From Methanobacteriota archaeon (GTDB lineage Archaea > Halobacteriota > Bog-38 > Methanoflorentales > Methanoflorentaceae): a DNA stretch of 64,000 nucleotides. Within the stretch, counting starts at the first letter, position 1. Each line of letters opens with the position of its first letter. Below, in pieces: positions 2,490 to 62,516 of the stretch. The stretch is taken from contig OY970393.1 in assembly GCA_963720465.1 (NCBI GenBank), positions 1,888,001 through 1,952,000 on the forward strand. The letters run 5' to 3'. The notes below the pieces were generated by a model, which was not told the DNA's origin, searched no databases, and worked only from the letters and a program-made list of their open reading frames with translations. A program made the translations under genes and the position numbers.

Positions 2490-3068
2490 AATAGCTTGCT
2501 CGCCTTTAGAAGACGTTTTACGTCAATGGCACACTGAATCTCCAAACGTGCTTTTTTATTATGGAACGGGGTTTCGAGGGTACTCCGTTCGTTGGGGTGG
2601 GAGTTGCCGTCGGCGGGGCTTGCTGCGGGTGGTGAACCGTCACACCCAGCTATTGCAACGACCTCAGCGCGACGACAAAACACCGATAGTGTCGCGAAGA
2701 GGCGGTTATCATATCTCATGTTTCAGCCCCTTTTAAATACGTAAGACTCGGCTGCTCAAACTCAAGGTTCTGCTTACCGTGCTCAGCTATAGCATGACCA
2801 TCTACTAAGTTGTCGCGCGCTGCGAAACACAATACGACTTTGTAGCTGCCAATTGTAACACGCCTCTACAAATATTCTCGCAGTTTTGACCTCGAAAACC
2901 AAACCTGAGTTTGGAACTTTAGGAATTGGCGAGAAGTTTTGCAAAATGTTCAAAATTCCTTCTCCAGCCCTTAAATAATGCTATAGTAAGGGCAAAAGGA
3001 GGCCGCTAAGGCGTTATTCATTGCACACAACCTAACGATGAAGAACGAAGGGTGGTAATGTTAGCGAC

Positions 3069-4046
3069 GTGCAGAGCATGACTGAGCAATCGTCGGATTA
3101 TACAACGGATGCCTACGCGTTGCAGCTGCAAGGCCTGACAAAGACATACGGTGACCTGGTTGCCGTTGACGATCTCAGCCTGCAAATCAAGAAGGGAGAG
3201 ATATTCGGATTTTTAGGACCGAACGGAGCCGGAAAGACCACCACGATCAGTATGATGGTCGGACTGCTGACCCCGACAAGCGGTGCGGTGCTCATCAACG
3301 GACAAGACCGGGCGCAAGCGCCGAAAAGGAGCATAGGCATCTGTCCGCAAGACCTCGTCTTGTGGGAGGAGCTGACGTGCACCGAGAACCTCATCGTCAT
3401 GGGCGACATGTACGACCTTCCACGGGCCGTCACGAAAGAACGCGTGCGCTCATTACTCGCTGCTCTTACACTCTCTGAAAAGGCGAACGCACGTGTGTCG
3501 CAGCTGTCCGGAGGGATGAAGCGCAGGCTCAACATCGCACTCGCTGTTATTCACGATCCTGATATCGTCGTGCTGGACGAACCCTCTACGGGCTTAGACC
3601 CGCAATCTCGTCTGTTGCTGTGGGACTTTGTTCGCTCGCTCAAGAACAAAGAGGGAAAAACCATCATCCTCACAACCCACGTTATGCAGGAGGCCGATGC
3701 ACTGAGTGACCGCATCGCCATCATCGACCACGGCAAGCTTCTTCAGTTCGACACACCCGCAAACCTGAAAAAGAAGATCGGGTCCGGTGACATCATCGAG
3801 ATGCAACTCACCGAACGAGAGAAGAACGCAGCGGTCATTGAAGACCTCAAATCCGTCAACGGCATCCTAGAAATCAACGACGCGAGCGGAAAGATCACCA
3901 TACGAGCGTTAAACGCCGTCAACCTGCTCCCTGAGATAACCGAACGCGTCGATGCGATTCGCACCCGGATCGCGGATATTTCACTTCGGGAAAACACGCT
4001 CGAGGACGTCTTCATCTACCTCACCGGAAGGGGGCTGCGGGAGTGA
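3069..4046 (+). CDS. ABC-2 type exporter ATP-binding subunit (DrrA-like)
   Basis: GPNGAGKTT, LSGGMKRR, LDEPSTGLD and TTH motifs; C-terminal TLEDVF. Confidence 0.95.
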   Translation: MQSMTEQSSDYTTDAYALQLQGLTKTYGDLVAVDDLSLQIKKGEIFGFLGPNGAGKTTTISMMVGLLTPTSGAVLINGQDRAQAPKRSIGICPQDLVLWEELTCTENLIVMGDMYDLPRAVTKERVRSLLAALTLSEKANARVSQLSGGMKRRLNIALAVIHDPDIVVLDEPSTGLDPQSRLLLWDFVRSLKNKEGKTIILTTHVMQEADALSDRIAIIDHGKLLQFDTPANLKKKIGSGDIIEMQLTEREKNAAVIEDLKSVNGILEINDASGKITIRALNAVNLLPEITERVDAIRTRIADISLRENTLEDVFIYLTGRGLRE

Positions 4047-5395
4047 CGGTGAAGTCTCTCTCATTAGCGATTAAGGCGCTCAAGCGAACAATTCGGGACC
4101 GTCGCACGCTTTTTTTCCTCTTGCTATTCCCTATAGTGCTCATGATCATTTTTGCTTTCGCCTTCGGCAGTTCCAACTCGCTTGGCACTGGGACAGCGCC
4201 TCACGAGATTGTGGTCATTAATCTCGACCAAGGGGCAGCGGTGTCCATCAACAATACCACCGAGCACATCAACGCCGGCGCGAAGTTCACGCAGCTCCTC
4301 GAAAACGTCACCTACCCGCAAACCGACACCCACATGTTCACCCTCAATAACGTGAGTGCAGATCAGGCCCTGGCAATGCTCAAAGGGCGCGCCCTCGATG
4401 CGGTGATCACGATTCCAGGGAATTTTTCGCAAGCGGTCGTATCATTGACCAATGCCTCCACGCGGGCTGAAACGACCTCAGATATCGGGCTGCGGGTAAT
4501 AAACGGAAGCGCCGCTCAGCTGCCGGTGAATACCACGCTTCCGAAACAGGGCAACGTCACCACACAGGTCATCGTCGAAGGGGACACGGATAGTACCGCA
4601 TTTGCCGCCGCGCAAAGCCTGATCTTCAATCTCCTCCAACAGTACCAAGGCCAGATACAGGCCATGACGATTCGACAGGTTGACGACACGCTGGCACAAA
4701 ACGGAAGCAATTCGAACATCAACTACATTTCGGCGGCCGTACAGCCACTCACAGGCACCCGATCACTAACGCTCTTCGACTACCAGGCACCAGGAGTGAT
4801 TGTGTTCGCCTTGCTCTTGCAGGTCGGCAGCGTCGCGCAGGACCTTGCGAGGGAATCTGCCCGCGGGACGCTCGGTAGACTCAAACTCTCCAATATGCGG
4901 TCATTTGACCTCCTGTTCGGCACGTTGCTCAGCTGGATCGTCTTCGCCGTAGCGCAAATACTGCTCCTCCTCGGAGTCGCCGTGGCGCTCGGGTTTGAGT
5001 GGTTCGGCGGCGCGAATTCCATCGTGCTTGCCCTGCTCATTGGCCTCATAGGCGGGATAGCCTCGATTTCGCTCGGCTTGCTGCTTGCGGCGTTTACCAC
5101 CAACGAGCGGCAGGCGGCACAATTAGGGGTGCTCATTGCCGTGCCGGTGTTTTTCCTCACCGGGTCGTTCTTTCCACTCCCCAACGAGATACTTGGAACA
5201 GCGTTTGGGACGACGTTCCAGGTCTATGACCTGCTCCCCTGGACACAGGTCGCGGATGCGTTGCGTCAGATCCTCGTCTTCGGGAGTGGCTTTGGCGACG
5301 TAGCGGCCTACGTGGGATTTGCGATCGTTCTCACCGCAATCCTCTTTGTCATTGGCGTGATTTTTTATTCGCTGGTGCGGTTGCGGCCGGAATAG
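4043..5395 (+). CDS. ABC-2 type exporter permease with large extracellular domain
   Basis: 4-bp overlap with the ATPase gene; N-terminal TM, Asn/Thr-rich external domain with many N-x-S/T sequons, C-terminal multi-TM ABC-2 region. Confidence 0.9.
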   Translation: MTVKSLSLAIKALKRTIRDRRTLFFLLLFPIVLMIIFAFAFGSSNSLGTGTAPHEIVVINLDQGAAVSINNTTEHINAGAKFTQLLENVTYPQTDTHMFTLNNVSADQALAMLKGRALDAVITIPGNFSQAVVSLTNASTRAETTSDIGLRVINGSAAQLPVNTTLPKQGNVTTQVIVEGDTDSTAFAAAQSLIFNLLQQYQGQIQAMTIRQVDDTLAQNGSNSNINYISAAVQPLTGTRSLTLFDYQAPGVIVFALLLQVGSVAQDLARESARGTLGRLKLSNMRSFDLLFGTLLSWIVFAVAQILLLLGVAVALGFEWFGGANSIVLALLIGLIGGIASISLGLLLAAFTTNERQAAQLGVLIAVPVFFLTGSFFPLPNEILGTAFGTTFQVYDLLPWTQVADALRQILVFGSGFGDVAAYVGFAIVLTAILFVIGVIFYSLVRLRPE

Positions 5396-8024: not shown

Positions 8025-8935
8025 CGGGCGCGTTCCCCTGTCTGGAGTTCGTAATGGCGCAAGAACAGATCCTCGAGCGTAGGCGGGGCACTCGTAAGCG
8101 CGCGCACGTCGAACGGGGTGAGGTGTTCGATTACGCGATTGATCGCACCGGCATCCACGGTAAAATGCGCGCTGACGCCGTCGACGCGTATGTTGTGCAC
8201 GCCCGGAAGTTCGCTGAGTCCGGTGACAGGGCGAGCGGTTTCCACTGAGACCGATATTCGGGTGAGGTGGCGCAGTTCGGCAAGTGTTCCTGACTCGACG
8301 ATCTTGCCTTCCCTAATGATGCTAATTCGGTCACACAACGCCTCGACCTCGGCGAGGATGTGACTGGAGAGCAGCACGGTCTTGCCGGCCTGCTTGATCT
8401 CCGTTACGCAGTCCCGGAACACCGCTTCCATCAGGGGATCGAGGCCCAACGTCGGTTCATCGAGGATGAACAGTTCGACGTCAGAGACAAACGCGGCGAT
8501 AAGGGCCACCTTCTGTCGGTTCCCCGTCGAATACGTCCGACACGGCTTTGTCGGATCGAACTTGAAGCGTTCCACCAGCTCGTCGCGACGCGGCTGGTCG
8601 AAGCCTCCGCGCAGTCTGCCTAACAGGTCGATGACCTCGCCACCGGAGAGGTTTGGCCACAGGCTCACGTCACCTGGCACGTAGGCCAGCCGACGGTGGA
8701 GCGCCGCAGCGTCGCGCCACGGATCAGCGCCGAGTACGCTGACATTCCCGGCGTTCTTGCGGAGCAATCCGAGCAGAATGCGGAGAGTCGTGGTTTTTCC
8801 GGCACCGTTAGGGCCGATAAAGCCAAATACCTCGCCGTCTTCGACCGTGAGGTCCACGTCGTTAAGTGCCAGGGTTTTCCCGTAATACTTGGTCAGATCC
8901 TCAATTTCGATCACCGACAAAGGATTCGCCTCCAA
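8021..8935 (-). CDS. ABC exporter ATP-binding subunit
   Basis: GPNGAGKTT, YSTGNRQK signature variant, LDEPTLGLD, SSH. Confidence 0.95.
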   Translation of the reverse strand: MEANPLSVIEIEDLTKYYGKTLALNDVDLTVEDGEVFGFIGPNGAGKTTTLRILLGLLRKNAGNVSVLGADPWRDAAALHRRLAYVPGDVSLWPNLSGGEVIDLLGRLRGGFDQPRRDELVERFKFDPTKPCRTYSTGNRQKVALIAAFVSDVELFILDEPTLGLDPLMEAVFRDCVTEIKQAGKTVLLSSHILAEVEALCDRISIIREGKIVESGTLAELRHLTRISVSVETARPVTGLSELPGVHNIRVDGVSAHFTVDAGAINRVIEHLTPFDVRALTSAPPTLEDLFLRHYELQTGERAR

Positions 8936-53308: not shown

Positions 53309-56046
53309 AGATCGATAGCATTCGCCTTAAGAATATAAGGACATTCGTTGATTCTGGCGAGATATTGCTTGGCGACGGTACGGTATCTATCTATGGGGAA
53401 AACGGCGCGGGAAAGAGTACCATTGTAGATTGCATTGGGCGAGCGATTTTTGGCTACGACCCGCAAGGCATAAAACCCGCAGTAATTGACTACAGAGGGA
53501 CGAAACACAAGCAAGGCGTGGTAGAATATCTTCTTAGGAAAGGTGAGACTGACGGCTTAATTGAAGTCAAATTCTCCAACAAAGGAAAGGCGTTCCACGT
53601 TGTAAACAGACTATCCCGCACAGCGCCGCAAACCTGGGAGCTTTATATCGACGAAAGAAATCCCAAGCTGTTCGGAAAGGATGAGATCCACCAGCGAATC
53701 GTGGATGAGCTCGGTGTTTCGGCCGACTACAGTGAATCAGCCAGCAGTTTGTTTGCAAATATTATTTGTGTTCAACAAGGCAAAATCATAAACGAGTTTG
53801 AGTACAGCGCTCAAGCTCGGAAGGACCATTTTGATCGGGTGCTAGGGCTATACCGTTACAGGCAAGCCTACGATGATTCGAAGCACGTCAAGAACAATTT
53901 CAAAGAGAAAGCGACTAAGCAGGAGGGCGATGTTCGCGTAGTCAATTCGAGCGTTGAACACCTGAGCCAACAAATCAAAAGCTTGAAAGAACACGAAGAT
54001 GAAGCGAGTATCCTAGACCGCGAGCTCGAAGACATCGACAAACAAATAACTTCACTACGCGGACGCAAACAAGTTTTTGACGAGCTAAGTGAAAAAATCA
54101 GCAAACTTGAACTCGAGCTTAATGCCAATGAGACTCAAATAGGTGCTCTGAAAATCAACCTAAGTAATATCGAGAGAGAACTGAAAGACAGTCGCAGCGC
54201 AAAGCAGATAGTTGAAGCTAATCATCAATCTTTCCTACGATATGGCCAAATCTCAAATGAGCTTCAAGAGGTGCGAGGGTATCTTCGGCAAATTGCAACA
54301 CTTCAGGGAGATCTTTCCGTCAAACAAAGGGAATATGATCGTCTTGAAAATGAAAAGCAAAACAAAATAGTCGACCTAGATAATTTTCGAAACTCCCGGC
54401 AAAGAGCAACAGACCTCAAAAAGCACTCTGACGATTATCGTAGGCGTCAGACTGAACTGGAAGCATTAACGAGTAACCAACTGAGATATGAGACCCTTTT
54501 GAATAAGCTAAAAGACGACCAAGAAGCACTAAACGAAGATGAATCTGAGATCAAAGCAGCTGAGCTGCAACTTCAAAGCTACGAAGCTCTAAGAACCGAA
54601 GCTGATCTTCTGGAGGGTTTAAACAGGGAATATAATACAATAACTGCGCTTCTGGGAGAACGAAACGGTCAGAAGCTACAACTTGAGAAGGAATTGGCAG
54701 ATCTGTTAGAAGGGATCTGTCCTTACACCCATGAGACTTGCGAATCAATCCAAGAGCTCGGCCAAAAGCAAAAGCAAAAAGTAGAACAAATTCAGCGAGA
54801 TCTAGTCAAACTGGACTTCAAAAAGAGACAAAAATCGGAAGCAATTAAGCAAGCTGCTGAATCTGAAAAGACGCTCCGCATACTCGAAAAGAAGAAACAC
54901 GAGCTAGATCTTCTAAAGAACGAAGTGCACAACGTCAACACTGATATCAAGGGCCTGGTCGCCGAGATTAACCACTTAGGCGATTCTTCTGAAGCAATCA
55001 AAAACACAAAAGCGCGCCTTGATGAGTTAAAACCAGTAGCCGAGGAGTTTAACTCGCTATGGTATTACATTCAAAGGTTCGATGAAGATGTGACTCTACA
55101 AGAGATTACTAGCGTTGACGAAAAGCAATCTCGACTGGCGCAGGCTCTCGAAAGAATTGATGAAGAAACGGCGAAGCTTTCTGAAGCAGGCGGGAACGAA
55201 GAAAACGAAACGAGGCTAACTGAGGAACTGAAAGAAGTGAAATCTGCTTATGATCTTTACTTGGCGTCTCTAAACAACGCAGAGAAATTGGAAGAAGCAG
55301 AAATCAGTTATGATGATCTGCGCAGCAGACTTCAGTCTTTAGAGGGTCACCGAGAGGAATTAGATAACAGAGCACTCGAAACGAAAATTATCTACGATAA
55401 ACAGGAACATCAGAGAATCCTGGAAGAGCTAGATGAGAGACAGGGAATCTTCAAAGAAAAAAAAGGGGTCCTAACGCAATTACTCAAACAGATTGATCAA
55501 GAAAAGTCAATCGAAAGTGACGTTGAAGAGAAAAAAGGAGAGTTAATGGCCGCTGAAGTCGAACTTAAAGAAATCAAATCCGATGCTGCATTTTTTGACG
55601 AGATTCGGGCTAGTTTTAAGAAATTGAGTTCCCTGCGTCCAGTCTACACGAGAGAGATAAGTAAGCGCGCAGCACGTTACTGGTCAAGTCTCGTCGGTGA
55701 AGGATCTCAACTGTTTTGGCAAGAAGATTACCTAATCTACAAAACAATAAACGATAATGTAATCTCCCTGTACGAAATGAGTGGTGGAGAGAAAATTTCA
55801 GCGTGCCTCAGTATTCGCCTAGCGCTTCAAGAAGTTATCGGCGGACTCGGCCTTTTCATTCTTGACGAACCTACGATACATCTTGATGAGGAACGCCGTA
55901 ACAACTTGGCAAACCAAATAGGTGGAATTAAAGGATTAAGCCAAGTCATCGTTATAAGTCACGACAATGCTTTTCATTCGCACACAAGGCAACAAATCAC
56001 TATTCAAAGAGAATCTGAGGGCGGTGGCAGCTCTGTAGAATGGTGA
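53305..56046 (+). CDS. rad50: Rad50/SbcC SMC-family ATPase
   Basis: GENGAGKS, Q-loop, long coiled coil with central CPYTHETC, MSGGE, ILDEPT.HLD, ISHD. Confidence 0.92.
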   Translation: MKIDSIRLKNIRTFVDSGEILLGDGTVSIYGENGAGKSTIVDCIGRAIFGYDPQGIKPAVIDYRGTKHKQGVVEYLLRKGETDGLIEVKFSNKGKAFHVVNRLSRTAPQTWELYIDERNPKLFGKDEIHQRIVDELGVSADYSESASSLFANIICVQQGKIINEFEYSAQARKDHFDRVLGLYRYRQAYDDSKHVKNNFKEKATKQEGDVRVVNSSVEHLSQQIKSLKEHEDEASILDRELEDIDKQITSLRGRKQVFDELSEKISKLELELNANETQIGALKINLSNIERELKDSRSAKQIVEANHQSFLRYGQISNELQEVRGYLRQIATLQGDLSVKQREYDRLENEKQNKIVDLDNFRNSRQRATDLKKHSDDYRRRQTELEALTSNQLRYETLLNKLKDDQEALNEDESEIKAAELQLQSYEALRTEADLLEGLNREYNTITALLGERNGQKLQLEKELADLLEGICPYTHETCESIQELGQKQKQKVEQIQRDLVKLDFKKRQKSEAIKQAAESEKTLRILEKKKHELDLLKNEVHNVNTDIKGLVAEINHLGDSSEAIKNTKARLDELKPVAEEFNSLWYYIQRFDEDVTLQEITSVDEKQSRLAQALERIDEETAKLSEAGGNEENETRLTEELKEVKSAYDLYLASLNNAEKLEEAEISYDDLRSRLQSLEGHREELDNRALETKIIYDKQEHQRILEELDERQGIFKEKKGVLTQLLKQIDQEKSIESDVEEKKGELMAAEVELKEIKSDAAFFDEIRASFKKLSSLRPVYTREISKRAARYWSSLVGEGSQLFWQEDYLIYKTINDNVISLYEMSGGEKISACLSIRLALQEVIGGLGLFILDEPTIHLDEERRNNLANQIGGIKGLSQVIVISHDNAFHSHTRQQITIQRESEGGGSSVEW

Positions 56047-57191
56047 AATTAGATCCCTTCTGGATGTACAGCGCAGTTGAGTCTCGAGTTGACGATCTCT
56101 CACGCATCTACTTTAAAAAGAAAGAAGAATGCGAGGCGCTGCGCTCTCAGTTTGAAAACGCATTGAAACTTGACCCACAGGTGATGTTTGAAAGTAACAA
56201 CGCCGAGTATCCGACTATACCCCTAGAAAATCGATGGATTAGCTCAATACGTCCAGATTTCAAATCAATTGAAGAAATGATGGCTTGGGCCCACGGCGTA
56301 CTAGAAGGCAAATTGGTTGCTGCCGTTGATGGTAGTCAGATACCGTATGACAGGGCAAATTCGATACCGACCGCGCTATGCCGCAGTTTTTTGTTTGCAA
56401 ATAAGCATGATGGCTCTTGCATTACCAAAGATTGTTGTAGATGCCTCTTGCCACAAGACAGCCTTGAAATGTCCAGAGATGAGACCATAATACTCCCCGA
56501 TCTGAGCTTTCGCAGATTCGCTTCTGAGATCGATATTGCTTTGAACAACCTGTCGCTGGAGATGGATGTGCTGTTGCTCGATGGGCCATTGATCATGTCT
56601 TTCTTGCACTTGTATAGAAAGAACGTATACAGATCAAGATACATTGGAAAGCTTCTAGCACTCCTGAAAAGCGCTGAAAAAAAGGTCGCGCTAATAGGCT
56701 ATCTCGACGTGTCACACGCTAAGGACTTGACAAAGACAGCTGGTTCCTTATTCGGACTGAATACGAGCAACTTAACTGACCCAGAACTACTCAACGATTA
56801 TCTTGGCGTATTTGATCGGACTTGCGCATTTCTTTCTCAAGATTCGATTCTTCAGCAATACAGAGGTAACGTGGACGGAAAACGCGTAGATTACTCCAAT
56901 CAGATGTGCTTTGCTTATTTGAGGGTTAACTCGCAAAGACCTGTAAGAATAGAATTCCCTCGTTGGGTCGTTGCGGAGGGAAAGCTAAACGATATCACAC
57001 GCTTGATTTGCGCAAGCTCCGCAATTGGAGCTGGTTATCCGTACGAGCTATCGAAGGCCCACGAGAACGTGGTACTGGGCTCCGAAGATCAAGCTAATTT
57101 CCAAAGAGTTGTAGAAGCGATAGCGAGTCAAAATGAATTCGAATTTGCCGCATCGCTCAAACATATTAGAAAGGAGAATCCGGTACAATGA
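56040..57191 (+). CDS. nurA: NurA-family 5'-3' nuclease
   Basis: AVDGSQI, LLDGPL, RIEFP.W and GYPY.L..AHE motifs. Confidence 0.9.
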   Translation: MVKLDPFWMYSAVESRVDDLSRIYFKKKEECEALRSQFENALKLDPQVMFESNNAEYPTIPLENRWISSIRPDFKSIEEMMAWAHGVLEGKLVAAVDGSQIPYDRANSIPTALCRSFLFANKHDGSCITKDCCRCLLPQDSLEMSRDETIILPDLSFRRFASEIDIALNNLSLEMDVLLLDGPLIMSFLHLYRKNVYRSRYIGKLLALLKSAEKKVALIGYLDVSHAKDLTKTAGSLFGLNTSNLTDPELLNDYLGVFDRTCAFLSQDSILQQYRGNVDGKRVDYSNQMCFAYLRVNSQRPVRIEFPRWVVAEGKLNDITRLICASSAIGAGYPYELSKAHENVVLGSEDQANFQRVVEAIASQNEFEFAASLKHIRKENPVQ

Positions 57192-57772
57192 CTCTAATTG
57201 GAGAAATAATGAGAGTTGATTCGGTTCTTGATTGGTTCGGCGAGGTGTATCATGAAAAGGCGGTTACCAACCCTCCAAAAAGAGACGATTATAGCTACGG
57301 AACGTTCGTAAGAGTTGAAGCTTTGGATGTCAAACTCGTGGCCATTATCAATAACGCACACATATATAACCCAGATTACGGGCTTCCGAACATTAAGCCG
57401 CTGTTACCACAGCAAAACAAAGTTATCTTTCCGGACTTTTTCAACGAAATCAAGAAACTGATTAGCTTATATTGCCTAGGTTACATAGATGGGGGGAGGT
57501 CGAGCCACGATTATCCGACAGTTGTCCCAGAATTGCATGACAAGATTTTCAAGATGTCACACAACGAGATTCGCGAATTCCATACACGGGATGGAAAATT
57601 GAGCTTGAGCTATTTGCCGCGCGTATCCAATTTTCATGATTATCCCTACATGCTAGACAAAATAACAACAGTACTGCGAAAAGTTTGTCCTGAGTCTTTA
57701 GAGCTTATTGACAAAGTGCAGAACGAATGCCAGTTTGGAACTTGCATTCAAGGGATGGGGCGAAGGCGATGA
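57188..57772 (+). CDS. Stand-alone HAS-barrel-like protein
   Basis: IGEI...PP...YGTFVRV...P.L...EI..FH...YLP pattern; overlaps both the nurA stop and the herA start by ATGA. Confidence 0.6.
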   Translation: MTLIGEIMRVDSVLDWFGEVYHEKAVTNPPKRDDYSYGTFVRVEALDVKLVAIINNAHIYNPDYGLPNIKPLLPQQNKVIFPDFFNEIKKLISLYCLGYIDGGRSSHDYPTVVPELHDKIFKMSHNEIREFHTRDGKLSLSYLPRVSNFHDYPYMLDKITTVLRKVCPESLELIDKVQNECQFGTCIQGMGRRR

Positions 57773-59301
57773 CATTCATAGGTAGGGCAAAAGGTCCTGG
57801 TCACCGCGCAGGAGAGTTTGCTTTTGTAGCGAACCGGCTGGATGATGCACAACTTGGGGAGTTTGTATGTTATGGAGCGGAAAGAACGCTGCTGGCTAGA
57901 ATTTTAGAGAGGGGGGATTACGAAACTTTTCCAAACAACTTTTTGAACAGCCCCAGTCATTCTCCGCACGAGATCGCAGAAGTTTTTGGCGCCGAATCGA
58001 CGAGCAATGTTGCATCGTACACCATCATAGCTAAAGTCCTTGGAGAATTCAATGCAGAAAATCGTACGTTTAAAGGCACTCGGAGACTCCCACAAGTCGG
58101 AGATCCCATCTATCTCGCAAATAGCACTCTTCTAAACGACGTGCTGCGGCCTGGGAAGGAAACAGGAATCATAGAAATAGGGACTCTTGCGACTCGAGAT
58201 GAAGGAGTGGGAGTTAGTCTCGATCTAAATGAAATAGCTTCTCGCCATTTGGCTGTTTTAGCCTCGACCGGAAGTGGCAAGTCTTACACGATTGGTGTAA
58301 TCTTAGAAGAACTGGTAGGTGCTCAAAATCGCGGATCTGCAGTTTTGTTCGACATACACGGTGAGTACAAGGACATGCCACTTACTGCGAGTTTTGAGGA
58401 TCATTTCACCGTAGTACGTCCGTTTATTAAGATACGGGACCTAACAGTTCAGGACTACAGCAATATATTCGGGCCTGATTTTTCAGGCAAGATGAAGGAG
58501 AGGTTATACCCAATCCTTAAAGAACTAAAAAAACAAGCTGAAAACTTCGATTTTAGTGACGTCTTAGGTAAATTAGGTAACGACACTAATGATGCTACTG
58601 ATGCCGCGATCAAGTGGCGATTACGATCGCTTAAACTGAAAAGCTTATTCTCTCGTGATCAGGATACACCGCTAACGCTGATCTGCAAACCAGGACACGT
58701 TTCGATAATTGATTTGACCGATCTGGACGAGGCAGAGGCTCGGATAGCCGTAGGATACTTAAGTTGGAAAGTTTTGCGTGCACGACAAAACTACAAAAAT
58801 GGCAAAGCATCCCTTGATACTCTTGAATTTCCTGTCATACTAGTGATTGAGGAAGCTCACCAGTTTGCACCATCAAAGGAAGACATTCCCTCAGGGCGTC
58901 AGCTAAAACATATAGCACGGGAAGGCCGGAAATTCGGCGTCGGTTTGATAATAGCAACGCAGAGGCCTAGCCGATTGGACGAAGACGTGCTATCTCAATG
59001 TAATTCCAGCATCATTATGAAGATAAACAACTCCAGCGATCAAGATTCTATTAGACGAGGAGTTGAATCAGTGAGCGACGATCTCATAAGCGACTTGCCT
59101 AGCTTGGAAGTGGGACAAGCAGTTATTTGTGGGGTTTGCACAAACACTCCTGCTCTTGTATCAATCAAATCAAGAAAAACTGCACATGCTGGCACGACTC
59201 CCGATTTTGCTGGCGAGTGCCGTAAGCGCTACGAGGATCACGCAAAAAAAGTCGAATACCATTCAAGGCCTTATCAACCAACAGAGCGAAATGAACTGTG
59301 A
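57769..59301 (+). CDS. herA: HerA helicase/ATPase
   Basis: N-terminal HAS barrel, HLAVLASTGSGKS, DIHGEY, IEEAH, REGRKFG, TQRP; start placed at the ATG at 57769. Confidence 0.92.
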   Translation: MTFIGRAKGPGHRAGEFAFVANRLDDAQLGEFVCYGAERTLLARILERGDYETFPNNFLNSPSHSPHEIAEVFGAESTSNVASYTIIAKVLGEFNAENRTFKGTRRLPQVGDPIYLANSTLLNDVLRPGKETGIIEIGTLATRDEGVGVSLDLNEIASRHLAVLASTGSGKSYTIGVILEELVGAQNRGSAVLFDIHGEYKDMPLTASFEDHFTVVRPFIKIRDLTVQDYSNIFGPDFSGKMKERLYPILKELKKQAENFDFSDVLGKLGNDTNDATDAAIKWRLRSLKLKSLFSRDQDTPLTLICKPGHVSIIDLTDLDEAEARIAVGYLSWKVLRARQNYKNGKASLDTLEFPVILVIEEAHQFAPSKEDIPSGRQLKHIAREGRKFGVGLIIATQRPSRLDEDVLSQCNSSIIMKINNSSDQDSIRRGVESVSDDLISDLPSLEVGQAVICGVCTNTPALVSIKSRKTAHAGTTPDFAGECRKRYEDHAKKVEYHSRPYQPTERNEL

Positions 59302-59545
59302 CGGACTCTCTTGCGAACAAAGGCATTCTCTTTTAGAAACGGCATTCGGGCCCTCTCAACCATTCAGACGGAAAGTGCTGTAGACTAGGGTGGTTAAGCG
59401 CGAGCTGTCAAGTTAAGTTGGTGGTATGACCCTTAGTGCTTCTTTGAATTAAGACGTAAGCCGCGACGACTACTCAGTCATCTTGTTACTTTTAGGCCTG
59501 TAGGGCAAGACGATAACTCAAGTTGGGAGTGTCCCACTATCAGGT

Positions 59546-59610
59546 TCTGTTAAATCAAGAGTTGTTAAATCAAGAGTTGTTAAAAGTGGGTTGTTAACAA
59601 GAGTTGGTAA
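59546..59610 (+). repeat. Left array of five GTTGTTAA-type direct repeats (13-15 bp spacing)
   Basis: TCTGTTAA 59546; GTTGTTAA 59561, 59576, 59590; GTTGGTAA 59603. Confidence 0.9.
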
Positions 59611-59676
59611 AGCACACTTTGTTGCGTCGATTTAAAAACATTTAATAGCACTTGATTTCTCGTTACGCCATGGTTT

Positions 59677-60336
59677 ATGTCGGAACGTAACGAGGGGTTA
59701 CAGTACGCAACAATCGACAAAGCGTACGAGCAAACATCAATAAGAAAAAGAATCGAAGCGTTATTCCTTGACAATATCGGCAAAATTGTAACGCATGAGC
59801 AAATAGTGCAAGTTGCGAGAAATCCAAAGACGGGTGTAGACCCTGAAGATTGGCATCAACGTTTATCGGAATTAAGGACTGACGACGGTTATACTATCTT
59901 ATCGTACCGAGATACCCCAAACTTAAAAGTAAGCGAATATATGATGCCCTCGCGGGAAAGGCGGCCAAAAGCTGATAAACGGGTGCAACCTGAGAAAAAT
60001 ACGTGGCAACAAGTGCTTGAACGCGCAAATCATCAATGCGAGTGGGCAGAAGACGGGATGCCTTGTCGGCTAACAGAAGGGGATGTTGACCCGGTTAGCG
60101 GGGGACGTGTCAAACTTACGCCTGACCACAAAACCCCACACTCAACGAACCCGAACGCTGACCGAAATAACCCGCATGCGTGGCAGGCAATGTGTGGCAG
60201 GCATCAAGTAATGAAAAAGAATTATTGGGATAATGAAACTGGAAAACTGAACGTAATTGCCATTATTCAGTCTGCGTCCAAAAAAGACAAGCGAGCCGTA
60301 TATAATCTTCTAAAAGATTACTTCGGCGAGTCCTGA
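59677..60336 (+). CDS. KpnI-like HNH type II restriction endonuclease
   Basis: RIEALFL...WHQRLSELRTD.GYTILS...CEW.EDG..C...KLTPDH.TPHS...WQA.CGRHQVMKKNYWD closely matches R.KpnI as recalled from memory; similar length. Confidence 0.85.
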   Translation: MSERNEGLQYATIDKAYEQTSIRKRIEALFLDNIGKIVTHEQIVQVARNPKTGVDPEDWHQRLSELRTDDGYTILSYRDTPNLKVSEYMMPSRERRPKADKRVQPEKNTWQQVLERANHQCEWAEDGMPCRLTEGDVDPVSGGRVKLTPDHKTPHSTNPNADRNNPHAWQAMCGRHQVMKKNYWDNETGKLNVIAIIQSASKKDKRAVYNLLKDYFGES

Positions 60337-60345
60337 ATGTTGTCA

Positions 60346-61125
60346 TCATGACTTCAAACGTTCAATTCCCAGGCGGTCTTCGACCATTTTGATGCGTTCC
60401 TCGTTCTGGTCACAAAGGATTGCACGCCTTCCTAGCTTTCTACATACTTCCCCCGTTGTGCCTGTGCCACACATTGGGTCTAAGACTAAATCCCCTTCTA
60501 TCGTAGTCATTTTAATGAGGGGTTCAATCACTTTAGCAGGCTTTTGAGCTGTTTTTGAGGGGTTCCCTATCTGTTCATTTCTTCCAACGAAGCCAATAAG
60601 GAGGGCTGATTCAATCACCGTAGGTGGCCCGGGAATATACCGTAACTTGTTGCTGTGATATTTCTCAAGTTGCACTTCATTCATGAAATGTTCAGGATAC
60701 AGCTTTGCAAAGAATTTGGCGATATGCAGACACGTTAATTGGGCAGAACGCCAACCACGTATTACCGTTGGGCAGTTCTTGTAGTACCACGTCAGCCATG
60801 CCACGAGTTCGGTTCCTTCAGGTAACGTATCGAGCACTTTGTAAACAATCTCAGGAAAACCCCATACAAGAATGTGGTCTGAGACTTTGCTCGTCTCAGC
60901 TATTACTGAATTGAGCCACGGAATATAATCCTCTCGCTGGCCGCCGACTCCTTTGTTGTACCACGGGTCAAGTAAGGTGGCAGTGACGTGCGTATTGATG
61001 CTTGAAAGTGTATCAAATACGTCCTGTGGGGGTAGTATGACTATATCACCCTCTTTAAGTGCCTCGCTTACTTCCTTTTGCACGGTTTGCTCTCCGTTCA
61101 ACAACAGAGATTCTTTCATATTCAC
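60346..61125 (-). CDS. Beta-class amino-DNA methyltransferase (N6A/N4C)
   Basis: Motif IV as DPWY, QKP...LI, GDLVLDPMCGTGTT (motif I) in beta order. Confidence 0.88.
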   Translation of the reverse strand: MNMKESLLLNGEQTVQKEVSEALKEGDIVILPPQDVFDTLSSINTHVTATLLDPWYNKGVGGQREDYIPWLNSVIAETSKVSDHILVWGFPEIVYKVLDTLPEGTELVAWLTWYYKNCPTVIRGWRSAQLTCLHIAKFFAKLYPEHFMNEVQLEKYHSNKLRYIPGPPTVIESALLIGFVGRNEQIGNPSKTAQKPAKVIEPLIKMTTIEGDLVLDPMCGTGTTGEVCRKLGRRAILCDQNEERIKMVEDRLGIERLKS

Positions 61126-61310
61126 TCTTGTGTTGTGCCAGAATGGACAGGACTGACAATAATTATCAGTTCTCCGTTTCTTACTTCAAGCTTCCAGCTT
61201 AGCGAATCTTCGCTTGTTAAGTCAAACTGTTTGACAATACTTCTCGGTACGGTTGTTCTCAGCGACTCCTTTTTCGACGTTGCTGGAGTAAGTTTTGTTA
61301 ATTCGCTCAT
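61122..61310 (-). CDS. AbrB/MazE/SpoVT-fold DNA-binding protein
   Basis: SLRTTVPRSIVKQFDL...D.L.W; GAGGT SD; its stop overlaps the MTase start (ATGA). Confidence 0.85.
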   Translation of the reverse strand: MSELTKLTPATSKKESLRTTVPRSIVKQFDLTSEDSLSWKLEVRNGELIIIVSPVHSGTTQE

Positions 61311-61312
61311 AG

Positions 61313-61402
61313 TTTACCTCTTAATAGGCATATACCTCCTTCTGTATAAATTTACCTATTAATAGTCCTTCAGTGTTACCTAAGAATATATGAATAGGTA
61401 AA
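61313..61402. promoter_or_regulatory. Repeated TTTACCTATT-type boxes, candidate AbrB operators
   Basis: TTTACCTCTTAATAG 61313, TTTACCTATTAATAG 61351 and inverted AATAGGTAAA 61393. Confidence 0.5.
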
Positions 61403-61773
61403 GTATTATGATAGCAAGAACCCAAACTTTGGGGCCGAGAATCTTTAAAGGCTATGAATTTGTTGCTACTTAGCATCGCATAACGCTCACTCTTTTTTAA
61501 CGCCTCTCAGTCCAGCGATACGCAGTACGAAGTCCACATTTCAGAGTAGGAAAGTAGCTACACCCGTCCCGACCACGTGCCGAAAACGCAGTGCAAGCAC
61601 ATTGTAGCTGTAAGATTATGGCTTGCGCTTAAAGACAAGTTAGTGGCTCGCGCGCAACGAGCACTTTTAAAATTTCTAAATTTAGATATCTAAAGCTTTA
61701 AGATATTTTTTTGTTCTTATTCTAATCAGTATTGTGAAGGTTTATGAAGTGTATTCCGCACACCACCCCCTTA

Positions 61774-61810
61774 TTAACAACCCAAAATTAACAACCCTCA
61801 TTTTAACAGC
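61774..61810 (-). repeat. Right array of three TTAACAAC-type repeats (inverse of the left array)
   Basis: TTAACAACCC at 61774 and 61788; TTAACAGC at 61803. Confidence 0.85.
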
Positions 61811-61880
61811 TCCGAATAAAGAGGGGGTATGAATAAAATGCTATCGAGTACCCCCACAGCTTCATCAAGAAATAGCAAAA

Positions 61881-62516
61881 CTAGGTGATCGCGCACGTGC
61901 ACTCGAGCACGTCTTCAAACCGATCGTTCACCATTTCCCAGTTCACGATGTTCCAGAACGCGTCGACGAATTTCGGCCGCTCGTTCTTGTAGTCGAGATA
62001 GTAGGCGTGCTCCCAGACGTCAAGAACCATAACGATGCGGAAGTTTGGATAGACGTTGACATTGTGCTTCTCTATTTGCATTATTATGGGCCTGTTTGTC
62101 AGCTTGTCGAGCGCCAGCGCTGCCCATCCTGACCCTTCGGTGGTTGCCGCAGCTTTGCTAAACTCCGCCTTGAATCGATCAAAGCTGCCGAACTCGTCGT
62201 TTATGGCATCGGCCAACTTGCCTTTAGGGCCCCCGCCGCCTCCTTTGCCGGCAGGCGCCATCGTGGGCCAAAAAAGTTTGTGGAGTATGTGGCCGCCGAT
62301 GTTGAACGACAACTCCTTTAGCGTAGCCTTAGCGTCTAGGTCTGCGTTGCTCTTGCGTGCAGCATCGAGCTTCTCAAAGGCCGCGTTAGCACCGTTTACG
62401 TACGCGAGATGGTGTTTGTCGTGGTGAATCCTGAGCTGTTGCTCAGAGATATAGGGCTCTAAGTCGTTATAGCCATAGGGCAGATCTGGCAAGACATAAA
62501 ACTTGTTCGCTTCCAT
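61881..62516 (-). CDS. sod: Fe/Mn superoxide dismutase
   Basis: HHDKHH.AYV, GGHILH..FW and DVWEHAYY motifs; start placed at MEANKF. Confidence 0.95.

Follow-up and report, generated by a model that had tools for sequence, protein, structure and literature searches.

A probable transposon fossil with IS6-like, multi-repeat ends around a restriction-modification cassette in a Methanoflorentaceae archaeon

The analysed DNA, a stretch of 64,000 nucleotides of contig OY970393.1 (hereafter the window), contains a 2271-bp segment (59543-61813) in which a type II restriction-modification (R-M) cassette lies between two inverted arrays of short repeats. We concluded, with a probability of about 0.8, that this segment is a degraded IS6-like DDE transposon with multi-repeat ends and R-M cargo, from a group specific to this lineage, and that its own transposase has been almost entirely lost. 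The reading is built on how the repeats are arranged, on the homology between ends, on target duplications seen in relatives, on the family of the transposase and on a remnant of the transposase gene in the window. Intact members of the group encode a transposase of 372-389 amino acids (aa), which combines an IS6-type DDE core with an N-terminal SWIM zinc finger and a four-cysteine zinc module. Each end consists of an IS6-type tip (GG..CTGTT..AAA), two to three tandem tip-like GTTGTTAA units, one per 14 bp, and a GGTTGG unit. These elements insert with 8-bp target duplications and carry passenger genes, partly for defence, between the ends. In the window copy the passengers are a restriction endonuclease (REase), a DNA methyltransferase (MTase) and an AbrB-fold gene, and the transposase is reduced to an N-terminal stub. 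Movement may be IS6-like (cointegrate or replicative), and the window copy would once have transposed as a unit.

A first-pass annotation, made from the letters of the window alone, had described inverted arrays at both ends of the cassette, and this description was confirmed. In the left array, exact GTTGTTAA units begin at 59561, 59576 and 59590 and are followed by GTTGGTAA at 59603, giving spacings of 15, 14 and 13 nt. On the minus strand of the right array, exact units lie at 61774 and 61788 (Table 1). A repeat search joined the two arrays as a 43-nt inverted repeat (arms 59559-59601 and 61770-61812) with a complementarity of 79%. Compared with the canonical module described below, the left end has one extra, duplicated unit of 15 nt. 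The host genome is a single contig of 2,313,764 bp with a guanine-plus-cytosine (GC) content of 51.7%. Exact GTTGTTAA occurs at 68 sites on both strands of this genome, and seven times in the window, where 1.71 would be expected by chance. Five of these window sites fall within the two arrays, and a count of seven was reached in 1 of 100 shuffles. Clusters of at least three units were found at three places only in the genome, namely the two window arrays and a third copy at G000:C1:1298440-1298493. A 54-nt weight matrix built from eight arrays returned the same three places at 15 bits or more and nothing else, the right array of the window scoring 71.1 bits.

Table 1. Coordinates of the window features and of three sister-genome elements with target duplications
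Feature	Coordinates	Strand	Description
Left flanking 8-mer	59535..59542	.	cactatca
Left end	59543..59611	+	tip GGTTCTGTTAAA, three GTTGTTAA, then GTTGGTAA
Type II restriction endonuclease, 219 aa, cargo	59677..60336	+	PADLOC REase_II PDLC03503
N4/N6 DNA methyltransferase, 259 aa, cargo	60346..61125	-	Pfam PF01555, PADLOC MTase_II
AbrB/MazE-fold small protein, 62 aa	61122..61310	-	weak Pfam PF04014
Divergent intergenic region	61311..61407	.	two direct TTTACCTnTTAATAG copies and one inverted
Broken remnant of SWIM + IS6-type transposase gene	61408..61696	+	about the first 105 codons, interrupted; DDE domain deleted
Right end	61760..61813	-	tip GGAGCTGTTAAAA (its reverse complement ends at 61813), two GTTGTTAA, then GGTGGTGT
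Right flanking 8-mer	61814..61821	.	gaataaag
G022 element	L252 3243-7143		tip GGCTCTGTTGAAA; duplication CTTATATA
G018 element	L255 3159-7259		tip GGCTCTGGTGGAAA; duplication AACGCAAG
G002:C75 element	L251		tips GGCTTTGGTGAATC, GGCACTGGTGAAAC; duplication CGATTGAC

Among 24 genomes of the family, BLAST and pattern searches detected the same end module in 5, all of the window's genus, and a reversed control pattern gave zero matches in the relatives. The module is about 54 nt long and comprises a GGNNCTGTTAAA tip, two to three GTTGTTAA units 14 nt apart and GGTTGG; its consensus reads GG(T/C)(G/T)CTGTTAAA-N6-GTTGTTAA-N6-GTTGTTAA-N6-GGTTGG. Between copies in differing contexts, homology begins no more than a few bases from the GG tip and ends at about +54. 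The three-unit pattern matched 58 loci in genome contigs and 14 in viral contigs, and the module was present in only six of them, of the same genus. The matches outside the genus were set aside as unrelated, perfect tandem or coding repeats. Over all sources, a metagenome scan with weight-matrix scoring yielded 31 distinct arrays. The tip start GGNNCTGTT is seen in 27 of these 31 rows; three tips are variants, and the row of the window's left end is offset by 15 nt.

Ten of the 31 arrays form five inward-facing inverted pairs, that is, the window pair and four metagenome pairs spanning 3160 bp (locus L129), 977 bp (L149), 4416 bp (L162) and 4793 bp (L166/167). Perfect 8-bp duplications abut the GG tips in two of the four, CTCGATCC in L166/167 and CCACAAGC in L149. 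Among six SWIM-IS6 loci fetched from sister genomes, three showed related tips, arrays of the GGTTG/GGTGAA type and perfect 8-bp duplications (Table 1). By our own calculation, the chance of each exact 8-bp match is about 1.5e-5. The earlier proposal that the arrays are multi-site transposon ends is thus supported by the inverted pairs and their duplications. Its companion, that they belong to a cargo-carrying element type with defence genes, agrees with the other cassettes bracketed by the same ends, the cargo of which is partly defence genes. The L167 element carries an MTase_II gene (315 bits), a weak REase_II match and a DarG/Panacea-like protein, and candidate defence genes were found in L162 (PDC-S42) and G011 (PDC-M19A-like).

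Between such ends, L167 and L162 encode intact proteins of 372 and 379 aa, respectively, which combine a SWIM domain and a four-cysteine zinc module with the DDE domain PF13610 (DDE_Tnp_IS240; 72.9 and 61.2 bits). Both exceed the cut-off of 125 bits of the NCBIfam IS6 model NF033587 (133.6 and 125.3 bits); these two intact relatives, which share the ends of the window cassette, thus possess an IS6-type transposase. Homologs in the sister genomes are 38-47% identical.

The first-pass annotation had placed only REase, MTase and AbrB genes between the window arrays and had denied the cassette a mobilase of its own. Those three genes are indeed there, but a broken transposase gene had been missed. 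With the 372-aa protein of L167 as the tblastn query, residues 1-21 matched 61408-61470 and residues 32-85 matched 61493-61651 (72%); in a genome protein search the match extended to residue 105, with one TAG and one TAA inside. The remnant has the position and the orientation of the intact gene in L167 and L162, pointing to the right end, and DNA homology to L167 (73%) covers the AbrB gene, the divergent intergenic region and the stub. What is left in the window is a stub lacking the DDE domain. Judging from this sequence, the window cassette once encoded its own mobilase, as its intact relatives do between the same ends.

Whether the cassette can still move is a separate matter. No match to PF13610 was found in the one-contig genome (marker completeness 91%), nor was an IS5-type SWIM transposase found there; the sole other transposase trace is a 38-residue C-terminal fragment at 2039148-2039261. 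No joints indicating excision or inversion were seen in the contigs of four runs, although such contigs drop rare forms, and contigs of co-occurring relatives part from the window sequence at 61882-61883. The four are DNA runs from a single study, which may be where this DNA came from, and a search for runs returned none of RNA. With neither a target duplication at its flanks nor an intact cognate transposase in the genome, the cassette is probably a fossil, immobile now and not currently mobilised in trans. The first-pass annotation had favoured the opposite, a non-autonomous cassette still mobilised by a transposase encoded elsewhere. Both window ends do still have largely intact tips and repeats, and L149, a 977-bp element with a single passenger open reading frame (ORF; a truncated AbrB-like stretch), no transposase and a perfect duplication, indicates that non-autonomous copies do move. 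In view of the lack of a transposase in the genome, of a target duplication and of joints, we regard mobilisation in trans as improbable for the window copy.

The arrays might instead be operator or activator arrays acting in cis, for example for the AbrB-fold protein, which would control the convergent REase and AbrB-MTase units and would not be ends of a mobile element. The left array does end 65 nt upstream of the REase start. Seven of 10 loci have an ORF that begins no more than about 160 nt inward of the array, and in 7 of 10 transcription of the outer neighbour leads away from the array. IS6 ends are themselves known to contribute promoters, according to the available part of a review (Varani et al. 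2021, PMC7986276). This explanation, however, does not account for the five different 8-bp duplications abutting the tips or for the fit of the tip to the IS6 motif. The arrays have mutually unrelated genes as neighbours, the AbrB promoter region has its own, different repeats (TTTACCTnTTAATAG), and the right array is 450 nt from the AbrB start with the transposase stub in between. We therefore consider a purely regulatory role very unlikely.

The arrays might also be arm-type sites of a tyrosine or serine recombinase, integron-like, or remnants of the iterons of an integrated replicon, the last of which had been offered earlier as an alternative. Regularly spaced direct repeats are typical of arm sites and iterons, and L129 has a D5_N primase-helicase-like gene as its neighbour. 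Pfam scans of the ORFs at seven loci of relatives, within about 7 kb of the array, revealed no gene for an integrase, a resolvase or Rep, and none was found in the window between 53.3 and 63.9 kb or among the genes flanking the third array. The sequence of the flanking repeats changes from one insertion to another, which is the pattern of target duplications and not that of an att core. A tRNA scan detected no tRNA genes in the window, and thus no tRNA integration target. These facts led us to reject the iteron alternative, and arm-type sites of any of these kinds seem highly improbable.

Several observations weigh against the interpretation of the window cassette as a degraded IS6-like transposon. 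As the first-pass annotation had already reported, the cassette lacks a target-site duplication, its flanking 8-mers being different (Table 1), and the L129 and L162 pairs also lack one. The ends of the window cassette are only 79% complementary and have unequal numbers of units, and its left end resembles the solitary copy at 1.298 Mb (91% identity over 55 nt, G000:C1:1298440-1298493) more than it does its own right end. The window pair may therefore be a recombinant of two ends from different elements and not the result of a unit insertion. The subterminal GTTGTTAA units are putative additional binding sites of the transposase. Inner sequence of 4.9 kb or more was available at 15 loci (20 arrays), of which 10 have a solitary array with no partner, and a scan within about 9 kb of nine genome-derived solitary arrays, a set that does not include L144, revealed no partner end of another type. 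Relatives lack the whole stretch 56050-61881, and hence offer no empty site for the element alone. The size, cargo and end length are far beyond those of a typical IS6 element (about 800 bp with one ORF). Finally, Harmer and Hall (2019, PMC6807381), in the available part of their paper, doubt that archaeal IS6-like elements belong in the IS6 family.

As to the arrangement anticipated by the first-pass annotation, with paired arrays elsewhere and breakpoints of relatives at the arrays, the outcome was divided: ten arrays are unpaired and the breakpoints (~56050 and 61881) lie off the arrays, yet five inverted pairs exist.

The solitary ends occur in recurrent surroundings. The arrays of L119, L166-left, L019, L200 and L152 have a common outer flank and differing inner sequences; a recurrent site has the flank ...TTTCTCGATCC. 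Those of L125, L132, L166-right and L016 abut the end of an element of about 86 bp that resembles a miniature inverted-repeat transposable element (MITE) and has the form GGCTTTGTAAAA...two TGTTAAAAAAGTC...TTTTACAAAGCC. L120 retains only the last few bases of this MITE-like element plus a spacer, and L144 abuts a variant of the TGTTGCAAAAGT-type repeat. In the host genome, the MITE-like element (~2040230-2040315 of G000:C1) is flanked by direct repeats CCAATTTGA. On one side of it is a solitary GGTTGGTGAA-type end, and on the other the promoter of an operon for a Phr-like regulator, CDC48 and Hsp20; in G002:C75, a full SWIM-IS6 element of 3.8 kb occupies the same site. Ends located 7-8 bp from another end were found in G018, in G002:C75 and in the host genome at 2.04 Mb, which is reminiscent of IS26 inserting beside another copy. 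Together with the many copies without duplications, this hints, indirectly at most, at a cointegrate or replicative route. The surroundings as a whole suggest that insertion may occur beside pre-existing related ends, and that the DNA beside a retained end may be exchanged.

The proximity of arrays to hsp20, cdc48 and Phr-like regulator genes raised the possibility of a Phr-like heat-shock operator. This candidate was rejected; before the Phr-like regulator gene, the palindrome TAAC-N5-GTTA, the Phr consensus, is separate and lies downstream of the TATA box, and the array-like sequence at that place is the MITE-like element. The third copy in the host genome (G000:C1:1298440-1298507; L001:14441-14508, minus strand) is solitary, with three GTTGTTAA units, and lies directly upstream of a 155-aa coiled-coil/transmembrane ORF; an hsp20 gene, seemingly split across two frames (L001 14784-15020 and 15047-15319), is some 300 nt away. 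At L018, a degenerate end (8844-8897, plus strand, 15.3 bits) is placed tip to tip with a strong end (8742-8795, minus strand) at a distance of 48 nt, a geometry opposite to that of a bracketing pair. An ORF of 270-275 aa directly inside an array end recurs at four loci (L014:8095-8919:-, L114:3739-4554:+, L016:7865-8677:-, L129:7207-8016:-); only the L016 copy had a Pfam match (Proteasome, PF00227, E 5.4e-7).

A second SWIM transposase, the IS5-type protein P0001 (PF01609; NF033579 at 148 bits, cut-off 140), was found near arrays in G006:C4, G006:C24, G014 and G002:C90 and was first taken as the mobilase. It was rejected, since homology between its copies stops at the stop codon and no terminal inverted repeats were found. 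The 8-bp duplications and the GG..CTGTT tips point to the IS6-type enzyme and not to P0001. P0001 (L014:6420-7643:-) and the IS6-type protein (L167:2790-3905:+) have in common an N-terminal SWIM module of about 70 residues (49% identical) and nothing else. Both genes are preceded by divergent homologous AbrB-fold genes (compare 61147-61650 of the window). To judge from these sequences, this looks like a swap of the catalytic domain behind one DNA-binding and promoter module. Homologs of the window AbrB protein (66-84% identity) stand beside SWIM transposase genes in L014, L097, L144 and L167, and also near arrays in L125, L132, L149 and L151.

L144 is instructive in this respect. Its REase-MTase-AbrB block (2968-4621) is 85% identical in DNA to window 59749-61406, the homology ending 2 nt before the first matched codon of the remnant (61408). 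The block is followed there by an intact IS5-type SWIM transposase and not by an IS6-type one, and no array lies upstream of the REase gene. The shared N-terminal module, the homologous AbrB genes and the L144 block allow a further reading, which we put forward tentatively and consider doubtful. The SWIM module, the divergent AbrB gene and the shared promoter would constitute a portable end-recognition cassette, found on both IS6-type and IS5-type DDE cores; both chimeras would act on GTTGTTAA-array ends, and ends kept at fixed sites would serve as docking points for swaps of partly defence-related cargo. If true, this would be an archaeal, transposase-driven analogue of the capture of IS26 translocatable units, used partly for defence genes.

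The passenger genes of the window copy look intact. The REase matched PADLOC REase_II (303 bits) nearly end to end, with residues 10-217 on profile positions 8-215 of 218, and had no Pfam match; the adjacent MTase scored 71.9 bits against PF01555 and also matched MTase_II. The pair is thus a predicted type II R-M system. Their homologs in L144 are 77% and 95% identical, respectively. The AbrB ORF matched PF04014 with an E-value of 0.0021 and 18.4 bits, under the cut-off of 24.7 bits; its stop overlaps the MTase start by 4 nt, and it is divergent from the transposase remnant. The intergenic region between these two (Table 1) would hold the operator and promoter sequences for the AbrB and transposase genes. 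An Rfam search of 59200-62000 with E-values up to 1 returned no matches.

The cassette is located in DNA that the relatives do not have. Synteny with relatives breaks at ~56050, 3.5 kb outside the left end, and at 61881, 68 nt beyond the right tip. At the sensitivity of the search, no DNA matching window 56053-61874 was found in five close relatives, except short matches: G006 and G011 match the ends themselves, and G006 also the AbrB gene. By match coordinates, a Rad50-like gene adjoins sod in G006, G001 and G011. The family contains no close ortholog of HerA (its best matches are partial and 34-41% identical), and relatives therefore do not display the empty herA-sod site that had been sought. 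Between ~50,000 and 61,900 the GC content is 0.42-0.47, compared with 0.52-0.59 on either side, and over this low-GC stretch of about 12 kb synteny with relatives is reduced or missing altogether. The stretch is probably a variable island with the transposon fossil at its right edge. Three genes to the left of the cassette (56040-59301), for NurA (383 aa), a product of 194 aa and HerA (524 aa), come after a Rad50-like gene, the stop of which overlaps the NurA start. The trio has no close ortholog in 23 family genomes and is missing at the site in the five relatives searched by DNA. In PADLOC, HerA matched the HerA and mad8 models and the Rad50-like protein matched mad3 and LmuB. The trio could be an acquired defence or repair module.

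The elements would function in the manner of IS6 members and, by transposase and tip, belong near the IS6 family. In the available part of the review of Varani et al. (PMC7986276), IS6 members average about 800 bp, have the tip signature GG, cTGTt, caaa and make 8-bp target duplications; a passenger gene is described only in ISDsp3, and an N-terminal zinc finger in one clostridial clade. Here the DDE domain matches PF13610 and NF033587, and the tips consist of GG, CTGTT and an A-rich part. Both window tips conform to this signature, 'caaa' being AAAA here and GAAA in the G022 element. The duplications are 8 bp where present, that is, in two of four metagenome pairs and three of six sister-genome loci and not in the window. 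The elements fail the compactness of the family (~700-890 bp, up to 1.76 kb, a single ORF and inverted repeats of 15-20 bp). The metagenome pairs and the window copy range from 977 to 4793 bp, that is, 1-4.8 kb with one to five passenger genes as against about 0.8 kb; they contain passenger ORFs and AbrB, and a transposase is present in two of the four metagenome pairs. Their ends, at least 54 nt long and generally 54-80 nt with two to four tandem subterminal repeats, also differ from the inverted repeats of 14-20 bp of IS6/IS26. The transposase has an extra N-terminal SWIM finger, and an AbrB-fold gene is often located divergently upstream. What stands out is the SWIM module, the tandem subterminal repeats in ends of 54-80 nt and the cargo that includes defence genes. 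The clostridial clade h resembles these elements in its longer transposases with N-terminal CxxC zinc-binding extensions, and ISDsp3 in its cargo, but both are bacterial and 1.2-1.8 kb long, and subterminal arrays are not mentioned for them in the available part of PMC7986276. Likewise, SWIM is not mentioned in the available parts of PMC6807381 and of a 2026 survey of archaeal insertion sequences (PMC13343696). In the accessible literature on IS6 and archaeal insertion sequences, a body that does not include ISfinder, we found no description of SWIM-bearing IS6-like elements with subterminal arrays.

Regularly spaced, tip-like subterminal motifs, inverted at the two ends, and cargo genes are features shared with Tn7, Mu and Tn402. 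Those elements make 5-bp duplications, have binding sites of roughly 20 bp and use an rve-type TnsB/MuA transposase with an accessory ATPase. The present elements differ in having an IS6-type DDE core without multi-protein machinery of the TnsB/MuA type, 8-bp duplications and repeats that are 8-mers with a 14-bp period; neither an rve-type TnsB/MuA transposase nor an accessory ATPase was found between or beside the ends. The window cassette also resembles mobile type II R-M systems in combining REase, MTase and a small regulator-like gene in a mobile element, and in the recurrence of the same R-M and AbrB block in the different transposase context of L144. Classical C proteins are helix-turn-helix proteins, whereas the small protein here has an AbrB/MazE fold and only a predicted regulatory role.

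IS6/IS26 elements are known mainly as compact bacterial movers of resistance genes with 14-bp ends. The window cassette itself is probably a fossil, placed where a low-GC variable island ends, and no active shuttle. The elements to which it is related show that a lineage of methanogen-related archaea has IS6-like elements with added zinc-finger modules, subterminal arrays and partly defence cargo (R-M, DarG/Panacea-like and candidate genes). They offer a testable vehicle for the flow of defence genes among uncultured archaea, and a natural system for the effect of added DNA-binding domains and repeated end sites on IS6-type transposition.

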